64,000 nucleotides of DNA from Candidatus Acidiferrales bacterium. GTDB taxonomy: Bacteria > Acidobacteriota > Terriglobia > Acidiferrales > UBA7541. The stretch spans positions 21,543 to 85,542 of the forward strand of contig CAWADS010000046.1 of the NCBI GenBank assembly GCA_963780785.1. Direction: 5' to 3'. Shown here one piece after another: positions 138 to 19,380 of this stretch. The position numbers and the translations under genes were made by a program. The number at the start of each line of letters is the position of its first letter. Positions within the stretch are counted from its first letter, which is position 1. The notes below the pieces were generated by a model that saw only the letters and a list, made by a program, of their open reading frames with translations, searched no databases and was not told where the DNA came from.

Positions 138-383
138 CTAGAAAGCAGTCTTATTGCGGGTTGCGTTCCCGCCCACACGATCCGCATGGCCTCTGGGTCC
201 GACTCTCTTCGTGAGTTCCACTAGCGTCCCATAGACGGTCAAATGGGGTTCTGCATACGGCTTTTTCGGTCCCCGATTGCCGGGGGCTGCAGCCGCCTTG
301 ATGAGTTCCCGTCCCGTCCCACAAACGGTGAACTCGGGTTCTGCCTGTGGCTTTTTCGGCTCCCGTTTGACGAACTCACCCAT
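138..383 (-). CDS. Lasso-peptide-type RiPP precursor with duplicated leader
   Basis: 81 aa. Contains YAEPHLTVYGTLVELTK, matching the lasso leader YxxPxLxxxGxxxxxT. ATG overlaps the cyclase stop (8 nt overlap) with GGAGG upstream. Predicted core RVGPRGHADRVGGNATRNKTAF. Confidence 0.8.
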   Translation of the reverse strand: MGEFVKREPKKPQAEPEFTVCGTGRELIKAAAAPGNRGPKKPYAEPHLTVYGTLVELTKRVGPRGHADRVGGNATRNKTAF

Positions 384-2238
384 TACCAGCCTCCGCCTGC
401 TTGTTGTATCGAACTCTCTTCATAGACAGCAACCAGATGTTGAGGCAGTAGGGCCGTAGGCTGCCACCAATTTGCTGGGCGGTCATCTTACCATGCGGCG
501 GTGCCAGCGCGGAACGTTGAATATAGCGGTCCGCGTCGGAGCTCCAGGGCATTTGTTTCAGCTGGGCTGCCCCCGTTCGCCGGAACTGCTCAGATGCCGG
601 ATCGCCCTGCAGCGGCGTCTTCGGACGCACGCGAACCGGCTCCGGTAGCCGCCCCACCATGGCCTCTCGCAGCAGCAACTTGTTAAAGCACCAGGGAAAA
701 GGCGGCAGTGCCAAAAGGTAATTTACGATTCTTAAGTCTAGGAACGGGTAGCGCGTTTCCAGCGGGAAATGCGTCACGCCTGCGTTTTCCTGTTCAAACA
801 TACACGTCCAGTGGGGCAGGGCCATGGAGGCGTGGGCTCTAGGGCGAATTGGATGCTTGTAGGAACCCGCGGGATGCTCGCACCCGTCCTTCCACCGCGC
901 TTTCAAGTTGGCGCGGCCTACGAACTCCGCCGGCAGCCACTCTGGGAACACCGGTGCATCGGCATCTCTGCCCAGGATTTTCCTAACACGTGCTTGGGCA
1001 CCCCGCCATGGAAACGGCCGAACCCACAAAAAATTTGCCATCTCAGAAAACAGACGTTGCCATTCCCGGTTTCGCCACAACGCCTTCGCATACGGCCACA
1101 TCTGAAAGTCCATCAGGTTGTCGCTGCCCTCGCCTGACAAGAGCACCCGGCAATCCAGGGAAATGATGCGGCAGGATTCCAGAAAGTTGGCGATCAGAGG
1201 GCTGTCGACCGGTTCCGGCCAGCGCAACTCCGGATCGTCCCAGCCATCGAAGAGCCCCGCCTGATCCATCGGCAGAAACTTGACCGGAATGCGCAGAAAC
1301 TCCCCGACCGCGCGGGCTAAACGACCTTCCGCATCGGGAACCTGCGACTCATCAACGCACGTATAGCTTCTAATATCAGTGTCTTGAGCACGCTTTGCGG
1401 ACACCTCCTTGGCCGCCGCCGCCACCGAGGAGGAATCCAGTCCGCCGCTCAAGAGGATTCCGACGCGGTCTGTGCGCAGGCGGTCCGCAACCGCGCTTTC
1501 AAAAAGCGCCTGAAAATGTTCGATGTATTCTTCGGGCCTAACATAACGAATATGTCCGTCGGTGGGTAGCGTCCAGAAGCGCTTGATTTGTAAACCATTC
1601 GTCGAAAGGGTCAGGGAATGAGCTGGCGGCAGGCGCTGAATATCACGGAAGCTCGTCGTTGCGTTATCGTAGTTCAATCCGAAGAGCAGGAAATCCCCGA
1701 TGGCCGCTTCATTCAAGTCGTTCGGAACGCCCGGATGTAGCCGGATACAATTCAGCGTATTACTGAAAATAAAGAGGTCGCCCAGTTGCGCGTAGTAGAA
1801 CGGCTTGATTCCGAAGTGATCGCGCGCGCAGAACAGTTGTTTCTTTTTCACGTCCCACAGCGCAAACGAGAAATCGCCACGCAAGTGATCGAGGCACTGG
1901 GCGCCCCAGGCCGCATAAGCATGCAAAAGCAATTCCGAGTCTGGCAGATTGCCCCGGACCGCCCGGCGGGAGCGCTGCAGTTCGGCGACGAGCTCTGCCC
2001 GGCTATCGAGTCGCGCGTCCGCGACAATCCAGTACCGCTCCTCCAGGCTGGCCGGCTGCCGCTCGTTCAGCGATTCGTGCGTGGTCCGCAGCAGCGCATG
2101 CGCCATTCCCGTCGAACCATTCATCCAGATGGCTTGCGCATCCGGACCGCGGTAGGCCAAGAAATCTGCGAACGACTGCAACAGCGCACGCTCAATCGGC
2201 TTACCGTTTGGATGAACAATACCCGCGATGCCGCTCAA
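376..2238 (-). CDS. Asparagine synthetase-like protein, probable lasso peptide cyclase (isopeptide bond-forming)
   Basis: Likely TTG start giving MSGIAG (Ser rather than the catalytic Cys of AsnB). Motifs RDHFGIKPFYY, LSGGLDSS, LSGEGSD, RYPFLD, RPKTP. Directly upstream of a lasso-leader peptide. Confidence 0.85.
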   Translation of the reverse strand: MSGIAGIVHPNGKPIERALLQSFADFLAYRGPDAQAIWMNGSTGMAHALLRTTHESLNERQPASLEERYWIVADARLDSRAELVAELQRSRRAVRGNLPDSELLLHAYAAWGAQCLDHLRGDFSFALWDVKKKQLFCARDHFGIKPFYYAQLGDLFIFSNTLNCIRLHPGVPNDLNEAAIGDFLLFGLNYDNATTSFRDIQRLPPAHSLTLSTNGLQIKRFWTLPTDGHIRYVRPEEYIEHFQALFESAVADRLRTDRVGILLSGGLDSSSVAAAAKEVSAKRAQDTDIRSYTCVDESQVPDAEGRLARAVGEFLRIPVKFLPMDQAGLFDGWDDPELRWPEPVDSPLIANFLESCRIISLDCRVLLSGEGSDNLMDFQMWPYAKALWRNREWQRLFSEMANFLWVRPFPWRGAQARVRKILGRDADAPVFPEWLPAEFVGRANLKARWKDGCEHPAGSYKHPIRPRAHASMALPHWTCMFEQENAGVTHFPLETRYPFLDLRIVNYLLALPPFPWCFNKLLLREAMVGRLPEPVRVRPKTPLQGDPASEQFRRTGAAQLKQMPWSSDADRYIQRSALAPPHGKMTAQQIGGSLRPYCLNIWLLSMKRVRYNKQAEAGNG

Positions 2239-2592
2239 TCCGTTTGCCTCTCTGTCCAAGGGTTGCTACTTCGAATCTCACAACGAGGTGCTACGTGGCG
2301 TCATCCGCGCCCTGGGTGTGTTTCCCCGTTATCCGTAACTCGGTTTTGAATCGCTACTGGGCGGGAACCCCATTCTACTGGGGCGGCTCGGCAGCGGCAA
2401 CCGCGTCATGCTCACAGAATCTCGCAATCTATCATCCGTGATGCTCGCACCGTCCCCTGCGCCGGCATGCAGACCTTCCAAGGAATCGAGCATGCCTCGC
2501 ATTTAAGGCCGGGCAACGCCGGTAACCAGTGTCCGTTACCACATTTTTGCGAGAGGCGAACGAGTTTACTCTTGGAGGGAAAGGAATTTTTC

Positions 2593-2682
2593 TGGCGGAG
2601 GAGGAGGGATTCGAACCCCCGAGGCCCTTTCGAGCCCAACGGTTTTCAAGACCGCCGGTTTCAACCGCTCACCCACTCCTCC
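2593..2682 (-). tRNA. tRNA-Ser(TGA)
   Basis: GGAGGAG acceptor stem, anticodon loop CTTGAAA, long variable arm GGGCTCGAAAGGGCCT, GGTTCGAATCC T-arm, encoded CCA. TATAAT -10 at 2690-2695. Confidence 0.97.
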
Positions 2683-3061: not shown

Positions 3062-4528
3062 ATGAGAACCCGGCTTTACGTTTCAGTTTTGCTCTTCGCT
3101 TGCTTCTTAGGCATGGCTCGTGGGGCCGGCGTCGCTTCGCCTGCCACGTACAACGACGCAACCGGCCTTGCAAAACTTGCCACGCAAGCACCCGCTGCGG
3201 CCAAGTCACCAGACGCAAATTCCATCCTTGCTGCTACCCCCCCGCTGGGCTGGAATAGTTGGGATGGCTATGGCACGACAATCAACGAAGAGCAGGTGAA
3301 GGCCAACGCCGCCTGGTTCGCGGAGCATCTGAAACCTTTCGGTTGGGAATATATCGTTGTTGATATGGAGTGGTTCGTCACCAACCCCACGCCGGAAGGC
3401 AATTCGAAAAACTCCCTCTACGCGCTCGATGCCAATGGCCGGTACATTCCCGCGGAAAACCGTTTTCCCTCTTCGACAGGAGGAAAAGGTTTCAAGCCCA
3501 TCGGCGACTACATTCATTCGCTCGGCCTGAAGTTCGGTATCCACATCTTGCGGGGAATCCCAAAGAAGGCGGTTGAATCGAACGCCCCCATCGCAAGCAC
3601 TTCATTCCACGCATCCGAGGCGGCAGACACAGGGGAAATCTGTCCTTGGAACCCAGACAATTTCGGCGCGGACGCCACAAAGCCTGCCGCACAGGCCTAC
3701 TACGATTCCATCGCCTCTCTCTACGCCACTTGGGGAGTCGATTTGATCAAGGTCGATTGCATCAGCAGCCGTCCGTACCGCGGGGACGAAATTCGCATGT
3801 TGAGTGCCGCGCTCGCAAAAACAGGGCGCCCCATCGTGCTGAGCCTCTCGCCCGGACCAGCCCCGATCGAAAAAGCGGAAGAGATGCGCAAGTATGCCCA
3901 AATGTGGCGCATCTCCGACGATATCTGGGATTTGTGGCACAGCGATGTGCAGTACCCTCAGGGCCTCGGCGATCAATTTCAAAATGTCCTGAAATGGGCG
4001 GGACTCTCGCAACCCGGCCATTGGCCCGATGCGGACATGCTGCCTCTTGGCTATCTTGGCCCCGCTCCCGGCTGGGGCCAACCACGCCAGTCACGGCTGA
4101 GTCACGATGAACAGCGCACCCTCATGACTTTGTGGTCCATTTTCCGTTCGCCTTTGATGATTGGCGGGGAGCTGCCCAAAGCGGATGCCTGGACCGTTTC
4201 CTTGCTCACGAACCCGGAAGTCCTCGCGGTGGATCAGCATTCTTCCGAAAATCATCCCGTGATTGCCACCGATGCGGCCGTCATTTGGCTTGCCGAGCCT
4301 TCCTCGCATGACGGCTATTACCTTGCCGCATTCAATCGCGGGGAATCCGCGCTGGATCTCCATTACTCCTGGAAAGAACTCGGTCTCAAGGACAGCGAGT
4401 ACGTACTGAGAGATCTTTGGGAGCGGAAGGATCTGCCTTCCGCGAAATCTTTTGCTGTTAATCTGCCGGCTCACGCCAGCGTGCTTTACAAGCTGAGGCC
4501 GCTCGCGTACCCCGGCGCAATAATGTGA
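3062..4528 (+). CDS. Secreted glycoside hydrolase family 27 (alpha-galactosidase-like)
   Basis: Signal peptide; TPPLGWNSW, YIVVDMEW, HSLGLKFGI, WGVDLIKVD, MWRISDD, WPDADML; C-terminal LRDLW beta-domain. Confidence 0.9.
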   Translation: MRTRLYVSVLLFACFLGMARGAGVASPATYNDATGLAKLATQAPAAAKSPDANSILAATPPLGWNSWDGYGTTINEEQVKANAAWFAEHLKPFGWEYIVVDMEWFVTNPTPEGNSKNSLYALDANGRYIPAENRFPSSTGGKGFKPIGDYIHSLGLKFGIHILRGIPKKAVESNAPIASTSFHASEAADTGEICPWNPDNFGADATKPAAQAYYDSIASLYATWGVDLIKVDCISSRPYRGDEIRMLSAALAKTGRPIVLSLSPGPAPIEKAEEMRKYAQMWRISDDIWDLWHSDVQYPQGLGDQFQNVLKWAGLSQPGHWPDADMLPLGYLGPAPGWGQPRQSRLSHDEQRTLMTLWSIFRSPLMIGGELPKADAWTVSLLTNPEVLAVDQHSSENHPVIATDAAVIWLAEPSSHDGYYLAAFNRGESALDLHYSWKELGLKDSEYVLRDLWERKDLPSAKSFAVNLPAHASVLYKLRPLAYPGAIM

Positions 4529-4622: not shown

Positions 4623-5644
4623 ATGCCTGCCACGATGAAGAGTATCGCGCGAGACCTGGGCGTCTCGTCGTCACCGTCTCGAAAGTTCTGCACAATCATG
4701 CGGACATCAGCCCCGAAACGCGAAAACGCGTTCTGCAGCGCATGAAGGAAGTCAATTATCAGCCAAATCTCTCCGCCCGCGCGCTTTCTACCGGTCGCAC
4801 CAGCCTCGTCGGCCTGATTGTGCCGGACCTCGTTCATCCCTTCTTCGCCCAGGTCGCCAAGGGGATTTCGGCGCGCCTTGGTGCGCAGGGGTACAGCCTG
4901 ATCATCGCGTCTTCCGAGGAAGATCCTCAACTGGAACGCCGCGAAGTGGATCAAATGATGGCCCGCAGCGTGGATGCCCTGATTCTGGCGTCCACGGAAT
5001 CCGATTCCGCCAGCCTGGTGAAGCTGACGGATCGCGGCGTTCCGTTCGTTCTGCTCGATCGGAAGATTCCGGGCTTCCCGGCGCATTTCGTTGGAATTGA
5101 TGACGTGAAGGCGGGCTCGCTGGCGACCAAACATCTGATTGATATCGGCTGCAAAACGATTGCCCATATCGCCGGTTCCGAGGTCAGCACCGCGATTGAT
5201 CGCCAGGCTGGCTACGCGGCGACACTCGCGAAACATGGTTTGAGCCTTCCCGAAGGTTACATCGTCAGGCATGGAAGCGGCGACGACGCGGGAGACAAAA
5301 GCGGCTACGGTGCCATGAAGCAGCTTTTGCAGTTGCATCCTCGGCCCGACGGCGTGTTTTGCTGCAACGACCCATTGGCCATGGGGGCTTTCCGCGCCAT
5401 CCTCGAGGCTGGATTGGAAGTGCCCAACGACATTGCCGTAGTGGGCTGCGGAAACGTCCACTATGACGATCTTCTTCGCGTTCCTCTCACCAGCCTCGAT
5501 CAGGATGCTGCCGGCCTCGGAGAAAGCGTCGCCCGCCTTGCCTTGAACGTGATCAAGAAGAAAAGCGGCAGTACGCCCACGAACGTTCTCCTCCCCGCAC
5601 GATTGGTGGTGCGAGCCTCCACACAGAAACGGGGTACTGGCTGA
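4623..5644 (+). CDS. LacI-family transcriptional regulator (frameshift near 4666)
   Basis: N-terminal MPATMKSIARDLGVS..VTVSKVL HTH in another frame joins the ORF with YQPNLSARAL, sugar-binding domain and VPLTSLDQ. Confidence 0.88.
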
Positions 5645-5788: not shown

Positions 5789-6567
5789 ATGGAACTCTCT
5801 CCGTTTAGCCTCGCTGACAAAACTGCGGTCGTACTCGGCGGCACCAGTGGATTGGGCCGCACGCTGGCTCTGGGACTGGCGGACGCCGGCGCGGATGTCG
5901 TTGTTTCGGCGCGCCGCCAGGAACTCGTCGATGCGACGGCTTCGGAAATCGAAGCCAAGGGCCAAAAGACACTCCGAGTGGTGTCTGACGTGCGCGACAA
6001 AGCAGTCGCTTGTCCGTCTCCGCGACGCCGTTTTGAGCGCTTTCGGCAAAGTGGACATTCTCGTGAACGCCGCCGGCATCACCCGCAAACTTCCCACCCT
6101 GGAAATGTCGGAGGACGACTGGAATGCCATCCTGGACACCAATCTTACCGGGACGGTGCGGGGCTGCCAGGTTTTCGGCGAGCCAATGCTGAAGCGTGGT
6201 TACGGCCGTGTGATCAACATCGCTTCTCTTGGAACGCTTCTCGGTCTTTACGAGGTGGCCGCCTACTGCGCCAGCAAAGCGGGTGTCGGCTCGCTCACAA
6301 AATCGCTTGGCCGTGGAATGGTCGCGGCATGGCGTCCTTGTCAACGCGATTATTCCGGGCGTCTTCCGTACGGATTTGAACGCCGCGCTGCTGGACGGAA
6401 CCGCGCGCGGACGCGAATTCCTGATGCGCACGCCCATGGGCCGTTACGGCAAAGCCGAGGAACTCGTGGGCGCCGCCGTGTTTCTTGCCTCGGACGCCTG
6501 CGCCTTTGTTACTGGGCAGCTTATCGCTGTGGATGGCGGCATCCTCGCCAGCGGTGTGAACCAATGA
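5789..6567 (+). CDS. Short-chain dehydrogenase/reductase (KduD/gluconate 5-dehydrogenase-like; two frameshifts)
   Basis: GGTSGLG, DILVNAAG, YCASK, VNAIIPG, RTPMGRYG and VDGG are spread over three frames (shifts near 6000 and 6310). Confidence 0.85.
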
Positions 6568-6678
6568 GCACGCCCGGCGGCGAACTGGCCACCGCCATTT
6601 CCAAGCCGCCGCGGGGGACGCCAGCCGGTGCCGCTTCCGTGTTCCATATCGACTGGCCTTCCGGGAAGCCTGAAAACA

Positions 6679-7542
6679 ATGCTTGAGCGAATTGATGCCC
6701 ACCATCACCTCTGGCGTTACGCAAAAGAAGAGTACGGCTGGATATCTGACGACATGGGCGTGCTCGCACGGGATTTTCTTCCCGAAGATCTGCGGCGAGA
6801 GCTTTTGGCTTCTGGAATTCATGGCAGCATCGCTGTTCAGGCAAGGCAGACTCTTGAGGAGACATCCTGGCTTCTGCGCCTCGCCGATGAGAATGACTTT
6901 ATTCGTGGAGTCGTGGGTTGGGCGCCCTTAGCTAGCCCGGAGTTCGCGGCGGTCCTCGATCGCCTGCAGGAGTCTGAAAAACTGAAGGGCCTCCGCCACA
7001 TGATTCAGGATGAACCCGACGATGACTTCATGCATCGGCCCGAGTTCAACGCGGGTGTTGCGCTGCTCAAGCAATACGGCCTTGTCTACGACATTCTTAT
7101 CTTTGAGCGTCATCTTCCGGCAGCCATCTCCTTCGTGGATCGTCATCCTGCGCAGGCATTCGTTTTGGATCATATTGCCAAGCCGCGCATTCGTGACCGC
7201 GAACTCGAACCCTGGCGGACGAACATTCGCGAGCTTGCGCGCCGGGAAAATGTTTATTGCAAGGTGTCCGGCATGGTAACGGAGGCGAACTGGAGGAACT
7301 GGCGCCCAGCGGACCTGCAACCCTATTTCGATGTCGTCCTGCAAGCCTTCGGTCCCAAACGTTTGATGGCCGGTTCGGATTGGCCCGTCTGCCTTCTGGC
7401 GACGACCTATCAAGCCTGGTTTTCCACGGTAGAGGATTTCATACGTCCCCTCTCCCTTGCGGAGCGCGAAATGATTCTTGGCGGTGTGGCAAGTGATGTG
7501 TACTCCCTGGCGCGCGGAAGTTCCGCAATCGGGAAAGGATAG
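6679..7542 (+). CDS. Amidohydrolase-2 family sugar lactonase (L-fucono/L-galactono-lactonase-like)
   Basis: IDAHHHLW, VQARQ, LDHIAKP, CKVSG, GSDWPVC; adjacent to fucP. Confidence 0.85.
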   Translation: MLERIDAHHHLWRYAKEEYGWISDDMGVLARDFLPEDLRRELLASGIHGSIAVQARQTLEETSWLLRLADENDFIRGVVGWAPLASPEFAAVLDRLQESEKLKGLRHMIQDEPDDDFMHRPEFNAGVALLKQYGLVYDILIFERHLPAAISFVDRHPAQAFVLDHIAKPRIRDRELEPWRTNIRELARRENVYCKVSGMVTEANWRNWRPADLQPYFDVVLQAFGPKRLMAGSDWPVCLLATTYQAWFSTVEDFIRPLSLAEREMILGGVASDVYSLARGSSAIGKG

Positions 7543-7545
7543 GCG

Positions 7546-8883
7546 ATGGCCAAACATCAAGTGGAGAGTGCCCCCGGCGCAACGGCATCGCCTGCCAGGC
7601 ATTCATTGTTTCCTGCAGGGCAGATCGTTCCCTTCATCCTCGTCACCGCACTTTTCTTCCTCTGGGGAATCCCCAACAACCTGAACGACGTCCTCATCCG
7701 GCAGTTTATGAAGTCCTTCGAGATTTCCCGTTTTCAGGCCGGCCTCATGCAATCCGCCTTCTATCTGGGGTATTTCCTTCTGGCGATTCCCGCGGCCCTC
7801 ATGATGAAGCGCGCGGGCTACAAAGCGGGATTCGTAGTGGGCTTGCTGCTTTATGCCGCCGGCGCATTCTTGTTCTGGCCGGCCGCTCTGACGGGCAGTT
7901 ACGCTTTTTTCTTTTTCGCGCTCTTTGTCATTGCCAGCGGGCTTTCCTTTTTGGAGACGGCTTCCAATCCCTTTATCGCCCAACTCGGCGATCCGGACAG
8001 TTCGGAGCGCCGTCTGAATTTCTCGCAGGCGTTCAATCCTTTCGGCGCAATCTCGGGGGCTCTGATCGGCACGGTCTTCATCTTTTCCGGTGTCGAGCTG
8101 AATCCACAGGAAATTGCGGCGCGCCAGGCGGCGCATACTTATCAGGCGTATCTTCGCTTTGAAACGTTGCGCGTTGTTCGTCCTTATCTGGTAATCGGTA
8201 TCGTCGCCGTGGTTTGGGCTTTGCTCATCATCCGGACAAAGTTTCCCGTGATTACCAGTGAAGACGAGGCCGACCACAGTGAGCATGGCAGCTTTCGCCA
8301 ATTGCTCAGCCAAAGGCATTTTCTCCTTGCCGTCATCGCGCAGTTCTTTTATGTGGGAGCCCAGGTCGGCACGTGGAGCTATTTCATTTCCTACGTTCAG
8401 GATTACGCGCACATGCCTGAAAAGATCGCCGGCTATCTGCTCGTTGGCACGCTCGCAGCCTTCGGCGTGGGCCGTTTCGGCTCTGCGTACTTAATGCGCT
8501 TCATCTCACCGGGCCGTCTGATGGGCGCCTTCGCCGCGGCGAATATTGTCCTGGTCTCCGTCGCAGTCCTCCACCCGAGTTGGATCGGCATCTGGTGCAT
8601 CTTTCTCACCAGCTTCTTCATGTCGCTCATGTTCCCCACAATTTTCGCCCTCGGCCTGAAAGGTCTCGGCCCAAACACGAAAATCGGCGGTTCCTTTCTG
8701 GTCATGGCGATTGTCGGCGGCGCGGTTCTCACTCCGGTCATGGGCCTGATCTCGGAGAAGTTCCACAGTTTGGCTTTGGCCTACTCAATTCCGCTGATCG
8801 CTTACATCTATATTTGTGCTTATTCGTTTTTGGGCTCGCGGCGAGTGGATATCTCCGCAACCGTTACCGAACTCGGGAGGTAA
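7546..8883 (+). CDS. fucP: L-fucose:H+ symporter family MFS permease
   Basis: LFFLWG, LETASNPF, RLNFSQAFN, QFFYVGAQV, MFPTIF, MAIVGGA. Confidence 0.9.
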   Translation: MAKHQVESAPGATASPARHSLFPAGQIVPFILVTALFFLWGIPNNLNDVLIRQFMKSFEISRFQAGLMQSAFYLGYFLLAIPAALMMKRAGYKAGFVVGLLLYAAGAFLFWPAALTGSYAFFFFALFVIASGLSFLETASNPFIAQLGDPDSSERRLNFSQAFNPFGAISGALIGTVFIFSGVELNPQEIAARQAAHTYQAYLRFETLRVVRPYLVIGIVAVVWALLIIRTKFPVITSEDEADHSEHGSFRQLLSQRHFLLAVIAQFFYVGAQVGTWSYFISYVQDYAHMPEKIAGYLLVGTLAAFGVGRFGSAYLMRFISPGRLMGAFAAANIVLVSVAVLHPSWIGIWCIFLTSFFMSLMFPTIFALGLKGLGPNTKIGGSFLVMAIVGGAVLTPVMGLISEKFHSLALAYSIPLIAYIYICAYSFLGSRRVDISATVTELGR

Positions 8884-8944: not shown

Positions 8945-10617
8945 ATGAAACCAAGTCGATTGCGAAATAACGTCTGGCGAACTCTTGGCTCCGCGGCGTG
9001 CTTGGGTCTTCTGCTTCTCGGCCCGGCTCGCGTCTTGCGCAAGACTCTTCCTCAAGTACAAAGCCGACTGCGTCTCAATCCCCGCAGGAAATGGATCAAG
9101 CCTGGCAGAAGGCCAGCGCCAAATACGATGCCGCGCGTAAAGCTCTGCTGACCAGCGTAGACCGGACCGCGAACGCCGGCCCTTATCGTCCCGATTGGGA
9201 ATCACTTCGCCACTACGAAACTCCGGACTGGTACAAGGACGCCAAGTTTGGCATCTTCATTCACTGGGGCGTCTATTCGGTCCCGGCTTTTGGCAACGAA
9301 TGGTATCCGCGCAATATGTATCAGGAAGGCTCCGACGAATACAAACACCACATCGCCACCTATGGCCCTCCCTCGAAGTTTGGTTACAAAGACTTCATTC
9401 CGCGTTTCAAGGCCGAGCATTTCGATCCCGTCCAGTGGGCTGAGCTCTTTAAGGCCTCAGGCGCCAGGTACGTCGTTCCAGTCTTTGAACACCACGATGG
9501 TTTCGCCATGTACGACAGCGGCCTCTCCGATTGGACCGCCGTAAAAATGGGCCCGCACCGCGACCTCTATAGCGAACTCGCAAAAGCCCTGCGTGAACGG
9601 GGCCTCCGCTTGGGCGCTTCCTCCCACCGCATCGAACACAATTTCTTCCTCGAGGGCGGCCGGAAGATCGATTCGGACGTGAATGATCCCAGGTACCTCG
9701 CATTCTACGGTCCCGCGCACACCTGGTTGGACGGAAAGAAGACCCTGCTCCAGGATTGGACCTATCTGAGCAACGAATACCTCGATGATTGGCTCGCGCG
9801 CGATGCGGAAATTGTGGAGAAGTACGAGCCGGACATTATGTACTTCGATTGGTGGATCGGGCAGCCCAATGCCCGCAGGCATGTTGCGAAGTTCGCCGCT
9901 TTCTACTACAACCACGCCGCAAGTCAGGGCAAAGTGCCCGTCATCAATTACAAGGACAGCGCCATCGAGGAACACTCCGCCGTCCTGGATATTGAACGCG
10001 GCCAGCTATCGGGCATTCGCCCGCTTTATTGGCAGACGGACACCTCCATCAGCAACAAATCCTGGGGCTACATCGAGAACGACAATTTCAAATCAGCCGA
10101 AACAGTGGTTCACCAGCTCGTTGACATCGTCAGCAAGAATGGCAATCTCCTCGTCAACGTTGGCCCGCGTTCAGACGGCACTATCCCCGAGGAAGTCCAA
10201 ACGATCCTCCGCGACATCGGTTCCTGGCTCAAGGTCAACGGAGAAGCCATCTATGGCACTCGTGCCTGGACCAAGTTCGGCGAAGGCCCCACGGCAATCG
10301 TCGAGGGCGCTTTTCACGATACAGACACGAAATCTTTCACCGCTCAGGATTTCCGCTTCACCACGAAGGGCAATTCTCTGTACGCCATCGAATTGGCTTG
10401 GCCCGACTCCGGCGAAGCCGTCATTCACTCTCTGAACGAGGCCGCGCTCTCCGGCCAAAACATTGTTTCTATCTCTCTCTTGGGTCAGGGATCTCCGCTG
10501 ACGTACCAACTCAAGCCTGACGGCTTGCACATTCAGTTGCCGCCGCAGAAAGCAGGTAACTACGCCTACTCGTTCAAAATCGAATTCCAGAAGCCGCCCG
10601 TCGTGCGCGTCCCCTAG
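8945..10617 (+). CDS. Secreted GH29 alpha-L-fucosidase (frameshift near 9045)
   Basis: GAGGAGG RBS and signal peptide in the upstream frame; WYKDAKFGIFIHWGVYSVP, EHHDGF, MYFDWW, VSKNGNLLVNVGP, NGEAIYGTR. Confidence 0.92.
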
Positions 10618-10734: not shown

Positions 10735-11754
10735 ATGTCTCATGACGATCTCGTGCTTGTGACCGGCGCCGGTGGTTTTATCGGCGGCAATCTCGTTGCT
10801 TCCCTGCGGGCGCAGGGCTACAAGCGTATTCGCGCCGTTGACATCAAGCCCTTGCCTCATTGGTACCAGCGATTCGCGGACGTTGAGAATCTCTCTTTGG
10901 ATCTGAACGACAAGCAAAATTGCGAGACGTCGGCCAAGGGCGCCCGTGATATTTACAATCTGGCCGCCAACATGGGCGGCATGGGATTCATCGAGAAAAA
11001 CAAAGCCCTTTGTATGCTCTCGGTGCTGATCAACACGCACATGCTTCAAGCGGCCCTGAAGTATGGCGTGGCTCGCTACTTCTACTCATCGTCGGCCTGC
11101 GTCTACAACGGTGACAAGCAAACGAGCTTTGAAGCGCCCCCGCTGAAGGAAGCAGATGCCTATCCGGCGCTGGCCGAAGACGGCTACGGCTGGGAAAAGT
11201 TGTTTTCCGAGCGCATGTGCCGTCATTTCCGCGAGGACTTCGGCCTCTACACGCGAGTGGCGCGCTTCCACAATGTCTACGGCCCCTGGGGAACGTGGTT
11301 TGGTGGGCGAGAGAAAGCCCCGGCTGCCATCTGCCGGAAGGTCATTGAAGCCAAATTGACCAAAAAGCACGAAATCGAGATCTGGGGCACGGGAAACCAG
11401 ACGCGCAGCTTCATGTACATCGATGATTGTTTAGTGGGCATCCAGAAGATCATGGATTCGGCAATTCTGGAACCCATCAACCTGGGTTCGAGTGAGGCCG
11501 TCAGCATCAACCGGTTGGCAGATCTTGTGGAAGGGATTGCCGGCATCCACTTGGAGCGCAAACACGACCTGAACGCACCGCTGGGCGTAAATGGACGCAA
11601 CAGCGACAACACCCTGATCAAGAAATACCTGAACTGGGAGCCCAGCATCCCTTTGCAGGCTGGCCTGGAAAAGACCTACGCCTGGATTTACGACCAGTAT
11701 CTTGCTCGCGAAAAGGGTGCGGCGGGCGTCGTCCAGGAATTCACCAACACGTAA
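10735..11754 (+). CDS. GDP-mannose 3,5-epimerase-like extended SDR
   Basis: GAGGFIG, LAANMGGMGFI, SSSACVY, YGWEK and RFHNVYGPWGTWFGGREKAPAAICRK closely follow the plant GME signature, including the catalytic Cys and Lys. Confidence 0.88.
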   Translation: MSHDDLVLVTGAGGFIGGNLVASLRAQGYKRIRAVDIKPLPHWYQRFADVENLSLDLNDKQNCETSAKGARDIYNLAANMGGMGFIEKNKALCMLSVLINTHMLQAALKYGVARYFYSSSACVYNGDKQTSFEAPPLKEADAYPALAEDGYGWEKLFSERMCRHFREDFGLYTRVARFHNVYGPWGTWFGGREKAPAAICRKVIEAKLTKKHEIEIWGTGNQTRSFMYIDDCLVGIQKIMDSAILEPINLGSSEAVSINRLADLVEGIAGIHLERKHDLNAPLGVNGRNSDNTLIKKYLNWEPSIPLQAGLEKTYAWIYDQYLAREKGAAGVVQEFTNT

Positions 11755-11774
11755 TCCCGATCTCGGACCAGAGC

Positions 11775-13459
11775 GTGACGTTCATGCCGAACATGACGGG
11801 AAAGTGGGACTATCTGATCGTTACGGCCGCGAATGATCAGCAAGCCAAAGCTTACGACCATCAGATTCAGCGGCGTCAGGAAGCCGGCGAAATTCCCCAG
11901 GTTCGCCATTGTCTTGTAATTCCCGATATCGATGGCAAGCGCATTGGAAGCGGGGGAAGCACACTCCATTCGCTGGCCTGCGTCTTGCATCGCGAGCGGC
12001 CCGGCGTTGGTCCAGCCAGTTTCGAGGAAGCCGAGGCGATTCTGAGTGGTCTCCGTATTCTGATTGTCCATGCCGGTGGCGACTCCCGCCGACTTCCGGC
12101 GTACTCCCATTGCGGCAAGATGTTCGTTCCTATCCCGGCGAAGGGCCAACCCTCGGTTGCTTCCACACTCTTTGACCGGCTGGTGCCGGCATTTCTCAAG
12201 CTTCCGGAAGCATCTCGGGGGCAAGTGGTGGTTGCCTCCGGCGACGCTCTGATTCTGTTCGACGTTTCAGCCGTGGAGCTTGCTCGCCCAGGGATCACGG
12301 CGCTGGGTTCCTTTGCTTCCTCGAAAGAAGCAGCCCATCACGGTGTTTTTTGCACCGGCAAAGATGGCTCGGTAAGGCGCTATTTGCAGAAGCCGTCGCC
12401 TGACGCGCAACTCGCTGCCGGGGCGGTCAACGCGCAGGGTGAATCCGTACTTGATCTTGGCGTGATGAGTTTTGACGCCGGCGCGGCTGTTCAGTTGATG
12501 CGTGCCTTTTTTGTAAAAGGTTCTCCGGAACATGGCGAGCCTGCTTTGGATTGGAAAACCGAGGTGCGTGCGGCAGCTTTATTCCCACGGTATCGACCTG
12601 TACCGGGAGATTTGTTGTGCGCTTGGGACAGAAACGACTTTCGAGCAGTATGCAGACAACCTGCGAGCAAGCGGCTCAACCGTTGATCGCCGGCTCCTCG
12701 CGGAGTGGTTCAGTTCTCCTGCGGCAAATCCCCCTACATCTGGAGATTCTTCCGCGATGCAAGTTCCTCCATTTCGGCACCACTCGCGAGTTGATTGCCA
12801 GCGGAATGGCTCTGCTTGCAGAGGACTCAGGCGAACCTGCGCCGACCTCCTTGATCCTTAATAGCGATATTCAATCCGAAATAACCGCGGATCACGCGTG
12901 GCTTGAAGGTTGTTCTGTTCGCGGCACCTTGACCCTCGAAGGCTTCAATGCCATCGTCGGTGTCGACGTCGTTGAACCCCTCAGCCTCCCCAAGGGTGCC
13001 TGCTTGGATATTTCTGCTGGTATCAGCCGCAAAGACCAAAATGTTTGGTTCCTCCGCTATTACGGCATCGATGATACGTTTAAACATGCAGCCGAAGACG
13101 GAGACACATTTTGCGGCCAGCCTCTTCAGAATTGGCTGGCCACAATCGGTGCGGCCGCTTCCGATATCTGGCCGTTCGAGGCGCCGCAGGGCGAGCGGAC
13201 CCTGTGGAATGCTCGCGTGTTTCCGGCGTTGCGGCAGCACCAGGAATTCCGTGACTGGTTGTGGCTTTTGAATAGCAAGTCCGCAACCCCGGAACAAAAG
13301 AAGCGCTTCCTGGCCGCGGAGCGGTACAGTTCTTCTGAAATCGCGGGCCGGGTTGACCAAACCGAGTTTCAACTGCGGCGTTCGCGGATTCGATCGGCCC
13401 GGAGGTTGCAAGATGATCGCGGACACTCTCAGGCCCAGACTCGCGTGGTCGATGGTTGA
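11775..13459 (+). CDS. L-fucose-1-phosphate guanylyltransferase-like protein (Fkp N-terminal domain; frameshifts near 12580 and 12715)
   Basis: WDYLIVTA, KRIGSGGST, VHAGGDSRRLPAYSHCGK, HGVF, YLQKPS, FLHFGT, GIDDTFK, TLWNARVFP. Confidence 0.8.
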
Positions 13460-13507
13460 CAATAGTTGAAATGAACGCTGTTGCATGCTCTTGCAGGGAT
13501 GGTGACT

Positions 13508-13897
13508 ATGCTGAAAAATGGAATCCTCAATCCCGCCATTAATTCGTTGTTGAGCCGCGTCCGCCACACCAACACGCTGGTGATCGCGGACCGAGGTTTC
13601 CCCTTCTGGCCGCAAATCGAGACTGTCGATATTTCCCTCGTCGATGATCTTCCACGCGTTTTGGACGTTTTGCAGGCAATTCAAGCGAATTTCGTAATTG
13701 GGAAAATCGTGATGGCCGAAGAATTCCGCCGTGTCAACGATGTGCAGACGGTGCACAGCTTCGAGCAGTGTTTTGGCCAAATTCCGGTGACGTTTGAGCC
13801 GCACGTGCAATTCAAACAGCGCGTTCCCTTGGCCATCGGCTTAATCCGGACCGGGGACACCGTGCAATACGCAAACATGATTCTGGAGTCGGCGTGA
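13508..13897 (+). CDS. RbsD/FucU family mutarotase
   Basis: MLKNGILNP, RHTNTLVIADRGFP, IRTGDTVQYANMIL. Confidence 0.88.
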   Translation: MLKNGILNPAINSLLSRVRHTNTLVIADRGFPFWPQIETVDISLVDDLPRVLDVLQAIQANFVIGKIVMAEEFRRVNDVQTVHSFEQCFGQIPVTFEPHVQFKQRVPLAIGLIRTGDTVQYANMILESA

Positions 13898-13971
13898 TTC
13901 TGCGGTTTGCAGATGAACGGGAATCAGGATGCCCCTGTGAAGTCATTTAACTTAACAACTGAGCGCCAAAG

Positions 13972-14805
13972 ATGACCGACCCCATCGGAAGGATCCCCTA
14001 TCGCATGGCGCTGGCTGGTGGCTGGATTGACCAGCCCTTCGTATCCAGGCTCAACCCTGACCCGCCGGGTTCCATGGTGGTCGTCGGACTGAAGCCCACT
14101 TTCCGCTTCATGGACCGTGCCGGGATGGCGACCAGCACGCGAAGAATCGCCGAAGAGCTTTGGCATGGGGCCTTGCCAGACAAAGACCCAATGGCGTTGG
14201 TGCGGGAACTCTATGAGACGGAAAACACCGGGAAGGCAAACCCGTCCGGTTCCCAGGACATGGCCGGTCTGATACTGCCCGGCATTAACAGGCTTGACTA
14301 CGATTATGAGTTCGCCGGCGGGTTGTTTCCCGCGCACGTCGAATCCTGCAACGATCCTGAAGTTGGAGGCTGGCTGGAAGAAGTGATTCATCTTCTGCCG
14401 ATCGCACAGCGTCCCGATGGCTATAGCCCCCTTGACGTGCAACATTTGAGCGCCGACTGGGTGCGTCGCCTGGGGGAATCCGGCAAGGCCTGCTTCGCTG
14501 CAATCCTGGCTAAAGATACTGCAAAGCTGGGTGCCTCCCTGAACGAAAGCATGAGGTGCTGGGAGGCGCTTCTTCCGCACACCGTCGCTCATCCGCTCAT
14601 CACGGTAGACTTGCTTGGCTTGCTGGCTTATTACCAGGAACGCTACGCGGGCGCCATGTATTCGGGCTGTGGCGGCGGGTACCTCTACGTAGTCTCCGAA
14701 GAACCGGTGCCTGGTGCGATCAAGACGAAACTCAGGCTCGCAGCGAAGCACGAGCGGAATGGAAAGGCCGACGGCACTGCCCTAGGGTCCGCACGGACGC
14801 ACTAA
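13972..14805 (+). CDS. GHMP-family sugar kinase (resembles Fkp C-terminal kinase)
   Basis: PYRMALAGGWIDQP, GMATST, SGSQD, SGCGGG. Confidence 0.75.
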   Translation: MTDPIGRIPYRMALAGGWIDQPFVSRLNPDPPGSMVVVGLKPTFRFMDRAGMATSTRRIAEELWHGALPDKDPMALVRELYETENTGKANPSGSQDMAGLILPGINRLDYDYEFAGGLFPAHVESCNDPEVGGWLEEVIHLLPIAQRPDGYSPLDVQHLSADWVRRLGESGKACFAAILAKDTAKLGASLNESMRCWEALLPHTVAHPLITVDLLGLLAYYQERYAGAMYSGCGGGYLYVVSEEPVPGAIKTKLRLAAKHERNGKADGTALGSARTH

Positions 14806-14934: not shown

Positions 14935-16432
14935 ATGAGCAAATTCCCCACCTCACGTCGTGAATTCTTAAAGCTGGCTGGTGTTGCGGGCGCCGGGTTG
15001 CTCCGGCCAGGCAGTGCACTCCTGGGGCACGCAATCGTTGAAGGTGCGGAGTCGCAAGCTCCAGAGCGGCCGGCTGATTACACTCTCCGCATCGCCAACA
15101 CTCCCATCGAACTGGCGCCCAACCGCATCGTGTCTGCAATTACCTACAACGGTCAATTCCCCGGCCCCTTGCTGCGTTTCAAGGAAGGGCAGCAGGCGGT
15201 GGTGGATATTTACAACGACACGGATGCCCCGGAGCAACTGCATTGGCACGGTCAGTTCCTCCCAACCGACGTAGATGGCTCGGCGGAAGAAGGCACGCCC
15301 TTCATTCCGGCGCATGGCAAACGTCGCATTGCGTTCACGCCGCGGCCCGCGGGTTTCCGTTTCTATCACACGCACAATCGCGCAGGAGCCGATCTTCACG
15401 CGGGGCAGTATAGCGGCCAAGTTGGACCGGTTTACATTGAGCCCAAGCGCGAGCCGGGGAATTACGACCGCGAGGTCTTCCTCGTCCTCAAGGAATTTGA
15501 GCCGTCGTTCAGTCAGGGCGGCGACATGGCCATGGATTTCCTCGCTCCCGCCACAAAGGTGAAGGAGCTGGAAACTTCCGGCGAGTCCGCGATGAAAGCG
15601 TCGCTCGCAAAAGGCATGCCGCATGGCTATGAAGTCGGCTACCGGTTTTTCACCATCAATGGACGAATGTCAGGCCACGGCGACCCGATTCGCGTGAAAC
15701 ACGGCGAGCGTGTGCTCTTCCACGTTCTGAATGGCAGCGCCACGGAAATTCGTAGCCTCGCGCTGCCCGGACACACCTTTCGGGTCGTGGCGCTCGACGG
15801 CAACCCGGCACCCACGCCTGCCGATGTTCCCGTTCTTTGGCTCGGGACTGCGGAGAGAGTCTCCGCCGTCGTCGAGATGAATCATCCGGGCGTGTGGGTG
15901 ATGGGTGATCTTGCGGACGATGACCGCGCTCACGGCATGGGCATTGTGGTCGAATACGCTGGACACAAGGGCAAACCGATATGGACGCCACCGAAGCCGT
16001 TTCATTGGAACTATGCGCGTTTCGCGAAGCAGAATGCTGCCGCCTCTGAACCGGATGAACTGATTGAAATGACCTTTGCCAAACAAAACGCCGCGGCGCA
16101 CGGCTTCAACCTGTGGTCCATTAACGACCAGGTGTTTTCCGAAGAGATGATGACCGCCGCCTATCATCTCCGACTTGGCCGGCGCTACCGCATCCGTATG
16201 CGCAACGCCAGCGACGATATTCATCCCATCCATCTTCATCGTCACTCCTTCGAACTCACCAAAATTGCAGGGAAACCCCTCGGCGGGGATAATGAAGGAT
16301 GTCGTGATGGTCGGCGGATACCAGGAAGTGGAAATCAGCTTCACGGCGGATAATCCCGGACTTACGCTTTTTCATTGCCACCAGCAACTCCATATGGACT
16401 TTGGATTCATGACCCTGTTCGACTACCTCTGA
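14935..16432 (+). CDS. Tat-exported multicopper oxidase (frameshift near 16285)
   Basis: SRREFLK Tat signal; HWHG, YHTH, HPIHLH, and HCHQQLH in the downstream frame. Confidence 0.9.
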
Positions 16433-17780: not shown

Positions 17781-18014
17781 GCGCCCATCATGGGGTCCGC
17801 CCAGGGTCTCGTCAATTGCCCTTCCGGACGGGTGTTTCTCAAGTGCCAATTCGCTTCCTGGGGACTGGCTTGTACCCCGTTCCTGCAAGCTTTAGAATAA
17901 AACTAGCGGCTCCGGCCTCTTGTCTCGAACCTCACTTGCATCCCGCTGCCGCGCTTTTCTTGGAAATTCTTAAGGAATTATCTTGGCAAGCGAATTTTTG
18001 TGCCCGGGGGATTT

Positions 18015-19380
18015 ATGAGCCTTACTGAATTTATCGAAGGTCACCGCGACCAGCATCTCGCGGAACTCCTGGAATTCCTGCGCATTCCTTCCATTAGCGC
18101 CAAATCCGAAAACAAGCCCGATATCGAACGCGCCGCTCGCTGGGTTGCCGATCACCTGCGTGCTGCTGGCTTCAAAACCGTCGAAATCGTGCCCACCAAT
18201 CTTCATCCGCTGGTTTACGCAGAATCCCTTGAAGCTCCCGGAAAGCCCACTGTCCTTTTCTACGGCCATTATGACGTGCAGCCCCCCGAGCCCCTCGATC
18301 TTTGGACCTCGCCCGCCTTCGAGCCCCAATCGCGCGATGGCTATCTCTATGGCCGTGGCACCGCCGACGACAAGGGCCAGGTACACATCCACCTGAAGGC
18401 CCTTGAATCCCTTCATCAACTGAACGGAAGATTCCCCGTAAACATCAAGGTGCTCATCGAGGGCGAAGAGGAGGTTGGCAGTGTCAGCCTTTGGGATTAC
18501 GTCCAGAATCACAAGGAAAAGCTGAAGGCCGACGCGCTCCTTGTTTCCGATACCGCCATGCTCGGCAAGGGCGCGCCTTCCATCACTTACGGTCTCCGGG
18601 GCCTCAACTACTATCAGGTCGAGCTCACCGGTCCGGTCCGCGATCTGCACTCCGGTGTCTATGGCGGCGCGGTCCCCAACCCGCTGACCGTTCTCGCCGA
18701 ACTCTTCGCCAAGCTCCACGACAAAAACTTCCGCGTCACCGTTCCCGGCTTCTACGACGACGTCGCCAAGGTTTCCGCTGCGGAGCGCAAAGCCCTGAAC
18801 AAATTGCCCTGGAAGGCGAAGGATTTCGAGCGCGCCGTGGGGGCGCCCGCTTACGTCCGGCGAAAAGGGCTTCACCTCCGTCGAGCGCTTGTGGATTCGC
18901 CCAACGCTCGAATTGAATGGCATCTGGGGTGGCTACCAGGGTGAAGGCGCCAAGACCGTCATCCCCTCGAAAGCTTACGCCAAGTTTTCCACGCGGCTCG
19001 TTCCCAACCAGGATCCCAAGAAAATCGCCAAGCTCGTCGAGGCCCACGTTCGCAAGCTCTTGCCCAAGACCGTGCACTGCAAATTCGAGCTCCTGAGCTC
19101 CGGCAAGCCTTGGGTTGCCGCCTATCGCGCGCCGATTTTCCAGGTGGCCCAGGAGGCCCTGCAAAAGGGCTTCGGCAAGAAGGCCGTGTTCATCCGCGAG
19201 GGCGGTTCCATCCCTTTCGTCACGCAGATGCACGACACCTTTTAAGTTCCCTGTGTGCTGATTGGTTTCGGCTTGCCCGATGAAAACGCCCACGCGCCAG
19301 ACGAACACATCCTTCTGGAGAACTACTTCGGCGGCATCAAGGCCATTGCCTACTTCTACGAGGGCCTGGCGTCCTTGTAG
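18015..19380 (+). CDS. M20 family dipeptidase (frameshift near 18858, in-frame TAA at 19243)
   Basis: YGHYDVQP, GRGTADDKG, EGEEE, DLHSG, REGGSIP; ENAHAPDEH continues in frame after the stop. Confidence 0.88.

Follow-up and report, generated by a model that had tools for sequence, protein, structure and literature searches.

A possible GDP-sugar route for L-galactose assimilation encoded by an operon of an uncultured Acidiferrales bacterium

We analysed a 64,000-nucleotide stretch (the window) of the genome of a Candidatus Acidiferrales bacterium (assembly GCA_963780785.1, contig CAWADS010000046.1, positions 21,543 to 85,542), in which a single plus-strand run of genes leads from a GH27 glycosidase to a small GHMP-fold kinase (Table 1). 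As an initial annotation had described from the sequence alone, four genes at the end of this run, for a GDP-mannose 3,5-epimerase (GME), an Fkp-type pyrophosphorylase, a mutarotase and the kinase, directly follow fucP and a GH29 gene. On balance we think it probable that this operon assimilates L-galactose via GDP-sugars into GDP-D-mannose, in a Leloir-like manner. GH29 would free L-galactose from alpha-L-galactoside glycans, FucP would import it, the RbsD-type protein would give the beta-pyranose and the kinase, with ATP, beta-L-galactose 1-phosphate. The Fkp-type enzyme and GTP would then yield GDP-L-galactose, which GME would turn into GDP-D-mannose, the product that its equilibrium favours. 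This product would enter cell glycans or, via ManC, PMM and PMI, pass through mannose 1-phosphate and mannose 6-phosphate to fructose 6-phosphate.

We infer every step of this pathway from gene context and sequence. The features that support it are the conserved trio of GME, kinase and nucleotidyltransferase, the presence of ManC, PMM and PMI in operons with that trio, the recurrence of regulators, importers, GH29 and GH95 without any recurring glycosyltransferase, the closest match of the GH29 protein, and the position of the GME equilibrium. The initial annotation had offered two outcomes for GME running in reverse, and they fared differently. The conversion of L-galactose to GDP-D-mannose gains from conservation, ManC/PMM/PMI, GH29 and the equilibrium, while still being read from context; the conversion of L-fucose to GDP-D-rhamnose finds little to recommend it (see Alternative explanations).

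Conservation of the gene module

Relatives of the kinase numbered 568 in the scanned part of the species genomes, of which the closest 80, not a random set, were kept. Neighbours were counted with tblastn markers and with 94 of 116 selected open reading frames (ORFs); the heuristic gene calls used for the relatives missed genes. GME was present in 59 of the 80 kinase loci, directly upstream of the kinase in 51, and a nucleotidyltransferase in 71: in 64 of these it was a tandem CTP_transf_like (HIGH-fold) protein, in seven an Fkp-type enzyme, and in none both. Further neighbours included LacI-like regulators (27 loci), ManC (24), RbsD (18), GH29 (14), ABC ATPases (13), FucP (9), AraC (9), FucI (5), GH95 (3) and a lactonase (1). 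Loci with both GME and kinase were found in Acidobacteriota, Chloroflexota, Planctomycetota, Verrucomicrobiota and Spirochaetota. Because it recurs in five phyla, the gene combination is not a product of chance, and the question raised by the initial annotation, whether GME, kinase and nucleotidyltransferase are conserved together elsewhere, is answered in the affirmative. In one locus (L066) the order is GME-kinase-ManC-PMM/PMI and in another (L029) GME-kinase-transferase-ManC-PMM. Glycosyltransferases made up only three of 94 scanned neighbours of GME-kinase loci, with one O-antigen ligase, and none recurred.

GME was absent from 21 kinase loci, but it was found elsewhere in 16 of these genomes, and belonged to the operon-type clade in 11. 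An even sample of 400 Acidobacteriota (five candidates scored per genome; kin not independent) held the kinase in eight genomes, with GME adjoining in five. The remaining three had a transposon-broken operon, the fused type described below, and the arrangement of genome G127, to which we return. At the same threshold GME was detected in 48 of the other 392 genomes. Only two of 36 same-genus genomes contained the kinase, and the operon is therefore patchy.

Several related arrangements were observed. The broken operon (L155, genome G368) is a ManC-FucP-GME-kinase run interrupted by a transposase, with the kinase split. A fused CTP_transf_like and kinase protein of 380 aa (L052:17128-18270 and L062), of which there are at least 8,000 clusters, is an additional copy alongside the stand-alone module and in L052 is followed by a Nudix hydrolase. 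In a Terriglobia branch of ten loci (L020, L022, L026, L038, L040, L043, L044, L048, L050 and L073) the kinase and HIGH-fold protein lie apart from GME; a GT21 gene is near in four of the ten, and an operon-type GME is found elsewhere in seven of the ten genomes. Conversely, seven operon-clade GMEs have no kinase nearby (L151, L153, L098, L148-L150, L152), three with the HIGH-fold protein alone and four solitary. A heptose pathway (HddA plus HldC) was considered and rejected: the HIGH-fold partner falls short of the RfaE domain II cut-off (67 bits, with 181 required), an Fkp-type enzyme substitutes for it here, and the HddA- and GmhA-like genes sit in a separate cluster on contig C57.

The epimerase

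The predicted epimerase scores 290-300 bits against solved GMEs, the next family reaching 85 bits, and eight catalytic residues are kept (S120, C122, Y151, K155, N180, K194, R224, R288). These include the Ser/Tyr/Lys triad (S143, Y174 and K178 in the reference; S120, Y151 and K155 here) and the acid-base pair C145/K217 with the acidifying Arg306 (C122, K194 and R288 here). The equivalents of C122, K194, R288, N180 and R224 are identical across 58 aligned GMEs, and the SSAC and GGREKAP motifs singled out in the initial annotation are both present. The Cys/Lys pair and the Arg are among the residues that, in the available portion of a GME review, distinguish GME from GalE and GDP-fucose synthase (PMC8787198; this and the other papers cited by accession are drawn on for the portions of text available). 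The window protein thus shares all defining residues with the Arabidopsis (2C54/2C59, 8SG0) and Methylacidiphilum (MfGM35E) enzymes, at about 290-300 bits. Of particular relevance to direction, the reported equilibrium of 80:15:5 favours GDP-mannose (PMC6678494); GDP-L-gulose and GDP-D-altrose are given as further products (PMC8787198). Described GMEs have biosynthetic roles in ascorbate, cell wall, lipopolysaccharide and antibiotic formation (PMC8787198, PMC6678494, in the portions available), whereas the window GME lies in an uptake operon, and the string 'catabol' is absent from the available text of the review (PMC8787198).

The pyrophosphorylase

A search of solved structures matched the pyrophosphorylase to Fkp structures only, and it keeps the Fkp residues D31, H73, R80, K89, D136, H168, K187 and H272. 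An intact stand-alone homologue in L006 (560 aa) scores 191 bits with the bifunctional Fkp model NF009948, against a cut-off of 721. In the assembly the window gene is split into three frames by two extra bases (Table 1). These are most likely assembly errors, because L006, L007 and L012 lack them and have a single intact ORF of 551-573 aa, because short-read contigs of run X1 (about 97% identical, with five to six differences per roughly 200) omit one base at both sites, and because genes elsewhere in the assembly (SDR, multicopper oxidase, peptidase, UxaA, ManC) are frameshifted too. On the same grounds, and with six relatives of 55-87% identity intact and keeping all motifs, we consider a real pseudogene unlikely.

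Characterized Fkp makes GDP-L-fucose, GDP-L-galactose and GDP-D-arabinose, rejects mannose 1-phosphate and glucose 1-phosphate, and tolerates changes at the C5 substituent only (PMC11982464, available portion). The window protein shares the Fkp pyrophosphorylase domain with all eight key residues; however, Fkp is a single polypeptide of about 950 aa with both kinase and pyrophosphorylase, and the window has a separate gene for each. Fkp is also known only as a salvage enzyme for fucosylated glycans, whereas the window pair is joined with GME, RbsD, FucP and LacI.

The kinase and the mutarotase

The kinase reached no Pfam or NCBIfam cut-off, and its family is large, with 7,369 relatives among 7,999 candidates (more than 7,000 clusters). 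The predicted model has a GHMP fold: the top Foldseek and VIA rows are all GHMP proteins (Z 8.0-9.4, rmsd 2.8-5.2 over 115-191 residues), with Fkp, heptose kinases and mevalonate kinases tied as leading matches, and its atlas neighbours carry GHMP Pfams. Profile comparison by hhalign gave 96.5% against five Fkp kinase domains and, against single sequences, 91% for Fkp, 81% for an HddA-like protein and 1.6% for GalK. By plain sequence kinase and Fkp are barely similar (E 0.21). Five sugar-site residues are kept, R11, W18, D20, Q95 and D96 aligning with Fkp R592, W599, D601, Q761 and D762, whereas the T602 position is Gln, and E751 corresponds to E84 by spacing alone. We therefore predict, from model and profile, a GHMP-fold sugar 1-kinase of the same branch as the Fkp fucokinase domain.

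It is not a detached half of Fkp. Kinase domains of full-length Fkp measure about 380 aa, and their relation to the 277-aa window protein is detectable by profile only. The 'split Fkp' of the initial annotation consequently needs amending: the transferase is indeed Fkp-N-like, but the kinase is of another family. Likewise, the 'FucU/RbsD' mutarotase is better described as RbsD-type than as FucU. It passes the D-ribose pyranase model NF008761 marginally (93.4 against a cut-off of 93 bits) and matches RbsD structures only, no FucU structure being found at E 0.01; RbsD and FucU are one Pfam family.

The GH29 glycosidase

The best solved match of the GH29 protein is BpGH29 of Bacteroides plebeius (7LJJ, 7LK7, 7SNK; 452 bits to 7LJJ/7SNK), followed by a fucosidase at 287 bits. 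BpGH29 is an exo-alpha-L-galactosidase (bioRxiv 2023.03.30.534863, available portion) acting in a porphyran locus, and its six active-site residues, including the O6-binding Asp327 (PMC9774334, available portion), are all kept in the window protein (H68, E80, V141, D327, W335, N366), in a comparison that covers the catalytic part of about 480 aa only. The O6-binding Asp is present in 14 of 15 related GH29 ORFs that were aligned. As explained below, this similarity may serve as a pointer only to alpha-L-galactosidase activity.

Exchange of parts between lineages

A quick IQ-TREE analysis of 83 kinases, midpoint-rooted with the fused kinases on the other side, places the eight Fkp-type kinases together on a single branch (SH-aLRT 96) nested within the HIGH-type ones, adjoining two Terriglobia loci with GH29, LacI and FucP. 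The GMEs of Fkp-type loci nevertheless fall outside the 62-member clade paired with the HIGH-fold protein, and other members of the window GME clade stand beside glycosyltransferases or GalK-ManC; among sampled genomes with a 66-71% identical GME, the kinase was found in none of 16. The window-type pyrophosphorylase groups with two stand-alone copies adjoining ManC and is 45-48% identical to the N-halves of full Fkp. Setting the kinase tree against these clades, we conclude that two slots have been taken by different proteins: the window lineage kept the kinase and RbsD, and its GME and transferase slots were filled from other clades. In a further arrangement, six of seven full-length Fkp genes have a GME, from a different clade again, no more than 2 kb away. 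There are accordingly three builds, namely small kinase, HIGH-fold protein and GME clade A; small kinase, Fkp-N and GME clade B (the window); and full Fkp with GME clade C.

From these exchanges we infer selection on a three-step function in which the carrier would be GDP and the sugar L-galacto-configured. That they represent a widespread GDP-based, Leloir-type catabolism of L-galactose, put together from different components on three or more occasions, is a possibility that we advance tentatively. Since an Fkp-type enzyme can replace the tandem cytidylyltransferase-like protein, the latter would then define a new sugar-1-phosphate guanylyltransferase class, and the kinase the first L-galactokinase family.

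Related gene orders include a stand-alone fucose pyrophosphorylase directly before ManC (L124:8046-11621, L125:7910-10631); of this pair's genomes, G416 has GME and kinase on another contig and G332 has neither at the thresholds used. In Thermoguttaceae (L090, L091, L092) a GME 72% identical to the window's immediately precedes ManC; GalK is upstream in two of these loci, and the kinase and HIGH-fold protein are elsewhere. One run (L128:4264-11511) combines a GFO oxidoreductase, GME, full-length Fkp, a GH130 phosphorylase and a sugar isomerase, and here GDP-mannose or mannose 1-phosphate could feed the phosphorylase.

Other sugar routes in the genome

The genome is 82% complete. PMI-ManC-PMM-like genes lie on contig C20, unlinked to the operon, and gmd, fcl and fucI gave no match over cut-off in this 82%-complete sequence. 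A second GME, 54% identical, belongs to a polysaccharide cluster (G000:C57:110000-124731, L087) that also holds GT4, a sugar transferase, transaldolase-like, SDR, HddA-, GmhB- and GmhA-like genes and GalU, and that possibly makes an unusual heptose or L-sugar glycan.

The initial annotation had noted that no fucose isomerase, aldolase or fuconate dehydratase lies in the locus. This holds within the locus, but a lactonase and an SDR dehydrogenase stand upstream in the same gene run, and a dehydrogenase and a dehydratase are found on contig C34. There, at G000:C34:30351-36080 (L166), a GH29, a frameshifted UxaA/GarD-family dehydratase, an L-fucose dehydrogenase over cut-off and an MFS transporter form a set conserved in G482, G127 and G481. 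Judged by sequence, the window lactonase would be part of an oxidative branch, and together with the C34 genes would make up an oxidative route likely for L-fucose and possibly for L-galactose. A non-phosphorylative L-fucose pathway has been described (PMC11199699, PMC6336799), and the UxaA family includes L-galactonate dehydratases (PMC6336799; available portions in each case). None of four candidates in the genome was an enolase-type L-fuconate dehydratase, and the tagaturonate-reductase family had no match in the window genome or four relatives. The implied absence of any other route therefore fails as an argument, oxidative genes being present in the same genome and a lactonase in the same operon.

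Known fucose routes were looked for among holders of the module. FucI was found in 26 of 33 HIGH-type genomes and one of nine Fkp-type genomes, and L-fucose dehydrogenase in four of eight Fkp-type relatives and none of the 33 HIGH-type genomes; among 251 Anaerolineae, FucI occurred in six of 11 genomes with the stand-alone kinase versus 36 of the 240 others. L-fucose would thus already have a known route (FucI or L-fucose dehydrogenase) in most holders, a point in favour of L-galactose as the sugar of the GDP module.

Alternative explanations

A number of observations count against L-galactose assimilation as we propose it. Genome G127 (L072, 100% complete) keeps GH27-LacI-FucP-GH29-pyrophosphorylase-RbsD-kinase intact without a match to GME, gmd, fcl or fucI, and the module therefore persists there without the epimerase. 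ManC was found in none of eight Fkp-type operons, and where ManC, PMM and PMI do occur they are direction-neutral. Other members of the window GME clade lie mostly in glycosyltransferase clusters (seven of ten fetched by Pfam, two more weakly). In the third build one GME-Fkp pair belongs to a catabolic cluster that includes a GH130 phosphorylase, but others are near gmd or glycosyltransferases. Confidence in the kinase model is modest (pLDDT 63). The Fkp of B. fragilis favours L-fucose over L-galactose about 100-fold, with Km values of 0.034 and 3.3 mM respectively (PMC11982464, available portion). The O6-binding Asp of GH29 is found in fungal (Fusarium) fucosidases as well (4NI3, 9LXL), and the GH29 cluster concerned is not isofunctional (PMC11189522, available portion), which is why the similarity to BpGH29 is taken as a pointer only. 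With an L-fucose dehydrogenase, a lactonase and a UxaA-family dehydratase in the genome, L-galactose could instead be oxidised in the window organism. The FucI pattern has two possible readings: either fucose is handled by a route of its own, leaving the GDP module for another sugar, or fucose is what the module salvages. Finally, ManC, PMM and PMI are reversible, and reversal of ManC needs pyrophosphate, so that in the window organism GDP-mannose may be used for glycans and not burned.

Several of these points serve the main rival, which we judge unlikely though deserving of serious weight: that the operon's purpose is to provide GDP-L-sugars for glycans of the cell itself, with L-fucose, L-galactose or both salvaged by kinase and pyrophosphorylase and GME acting as a forward, de novo arm. 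The retention of the salvage pair without GME in G127, the company kept by the window GME clade, and the enrichment of FucI among holders would all suit it, as would the ability of ManC-PMM-PMI to feed GME and the position of GME and Fkp beside gmd or glycosyltransferases in L120, L122 and L123. Since gmd and fcl were not found over cut-off here (gmd being present in two of eight relatives), salvage could be the sole source of GDP-fucose. A search for GT11/GT10 fucosyltransferases gave no match in five genomes and is uninformative, control genomes also being without a match. On the other hand, a second GME already sits in the C57 polysaccharide cluster. The companions of the operon enzymes are a LacI repressor, an importer, a glycosidase and a mutarotase, and glycosyltransferases do not recur beside them; it would be odd to place a de novo arm under a sugar-responsive repressor.

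The operon might also handle another sugar: D-arabinose (giving GDP-D-lyxose), L-gulose or D-altrose. That Fkp accepts D-arabinose (PMC11982464, available portion), that the mutarotase is RbsD- and not FucU-type, that GME also yields GDP-L-gulose and GDP-D-altrose, and that the kinase has Gln at the Fkp Thr602 position all lean this way. We nonetheless hold it improbable, as the recurring glycosidases GH29 (14 of 80) and GH95 (3 of 80) release L-galacto sugars, no D-arabinan enzymes recur among the clusters, and the C5-only tolerance of Fkp excludes L-gulose and D-altrose for this type of pyrophosphorylase.

Slightly less credible again is the second branch of the initial annotation, in which L-fucose would become GDP-L-fucose and, by GME, GDP-D-rhamnose for glycans. 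Fkp-type enzymes, FucP and GH29 are classically fucose-specific, and FucI is enriched among holders. PMM and PMI, however, require a C6 hydroxyl, which fits a hexose and not fucose, and leaves ManC-PMM-PMI in an operon without sense for a 6-deoxy sugar; no rhamnan genes recur nearby. We found no report in the literature of GME acting on 6-deoxy GDP-sugars, and the GME review credits 6-deoxy epimers to other enzymes (PMC8787198, available portion).

Least probable of all is that catabolism runs through the oxidative route, with the GDP module left as a decaying or idle remnant: the frameshifted pyrophosphorylase, the oxidative genes and the transposon-broken operon of G368 could be read in this way, but near-identical short-read contigs lack both extra bases, the six relatives are intact with all motifs, and frameshifts affect unrelated genes too.

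Operon layout and surrounding genes

Table 1. Genes of the putative sugar operon in the window, with the basis of each assignment.
Feature	Coordinates	Strand	Basis or remarks
GH27 alpha-galactosidase-family glycosidase	3062..4528	+	PF16499/PF17801
LacI-family repressor	4623..5644	+	One base missing near 4667 relative to L012; ORF-finder start 4742
SDR dehydrogenase, KduD/gluconate 5-dehydrogenase-like	5789..6567	+	Two frameshifts, near 6003 and 6307
Amidohydrolase, L-fucono-1,5-lactonase-like	6628..7542	+	NF052480 294 bits (cut-off 400); PDB 4dlf 229 bits
FucP-type sugar:H+ symporter	7546..8883	+	TIGR00885 404 bits (cut-off 280)
GH29 glycosidase	8945..10617	+	Main frame 8998-10617; one base missing near 9033
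GDP-mannose 3,5-epimerase (GME), 339 aa	10735..11754	+	Similarity to solved GMEs and catalytic residues
Stand-alone Fkp-N-type GDP-L-sugar pyrophosphorylase, predicted	11775..13459	+	PF07959; two extra bases, near 12574 and 12714
RbsD-type pyranase/mutarotase	13490..13897	+	RbsD_FucU Pfam
Small GHMP-fold kinase, uncatalogued family, 277 aa	13972..14805	+	Predicted structure; profile comparison

GH27 was also present in two of the seven Fkp-type loci (L012, L072), and the SDR protein, scored on the intact L012 copy, did not reach specific NCBIfam cut-offs. A promoter and terminator scan gave nothing above chance; contigs of relatives lie over the operon in two RNA runs, although contigs cannot demonstrate transcription. 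Just upstream of the sugar cluster is a tRNA-Ser(TGA) gene (window 2593-2682, minus strand), which, given the patchy distribution of the operon, may mark an insertion site, and beyond it an asparagine-synthetase-like gene identified by eye (376-2259, minus strand). Downstream lie genes for a TAT-signal multicopper oxidase (14935-16353, plus strand) and an M20 peptidase (18000-19245, minus strand), both frameshifted in the assembly.

Relation to known pathways and implications

In its pyrophosphorylase form, the Leloir pathway for D-galactose employs a mutarotase, a GHMP galactokinase, a sugar-1-phosphate pyrophosphorylase and an extended-SDR epimerase. The window operon shares this logic, the superfamilies of kinase (GHMP) and epimerase (NAD-dependent extended SDR), and the presence of a repressor and a permease. 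It differs in that the Leloir pathway carries a D-sugar on UDP through a 4-epimerisation, with GalM, to glucose, whereas here an L-sugar on GDP would undergo a 3,5-double epimerisation, with an RbsD-type protein, to mannose. It is not a Leloir pathway in the strict sense, the epimerase being GME and not GalE, the transferase of the GTP type and the kinase unlike GalK.

No description of GDP-linked L-galactose use was found, though subscription papers and supplements outside the search could hold one; the bacterial L-galactose routes that we did find in print are oxidative. Robb 2022 and Watanabe 2019 (Mol Microbiol) are also said to concern oxidative routes for L-galactose. Those of Phocaeicola vulgatus (Hobbs 2014, as cited) and Luteolibacter LG18 proceed through sugar acids without a nucleotide sugar (PMC12632266, available portion). 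The window lactonase, FucP and LacI resemble such oxidative L-galactose and L-fucose loci, the dehydrogenase and UxaA-family dehydratase being on contig C34.

If L-galactose assimilation through GDP-sugars is borne out, it would give GME, described so far as biosynthetic only, a catabolic role, and would provide functions for two large unannotated families, the kinase (more than 7,000 clusters) and the tandem HIGH-fold protein. A kinase and pyrophosphorylase preferring L-galactose would aid the production of GDP-L-galactose, for which Fkp is poor. It would also account for the use of L-galactose from plant and algal walls by uncultured Acidobacteriota, Chloroflexota, Planctomycetota and Verrucomicrobiota.

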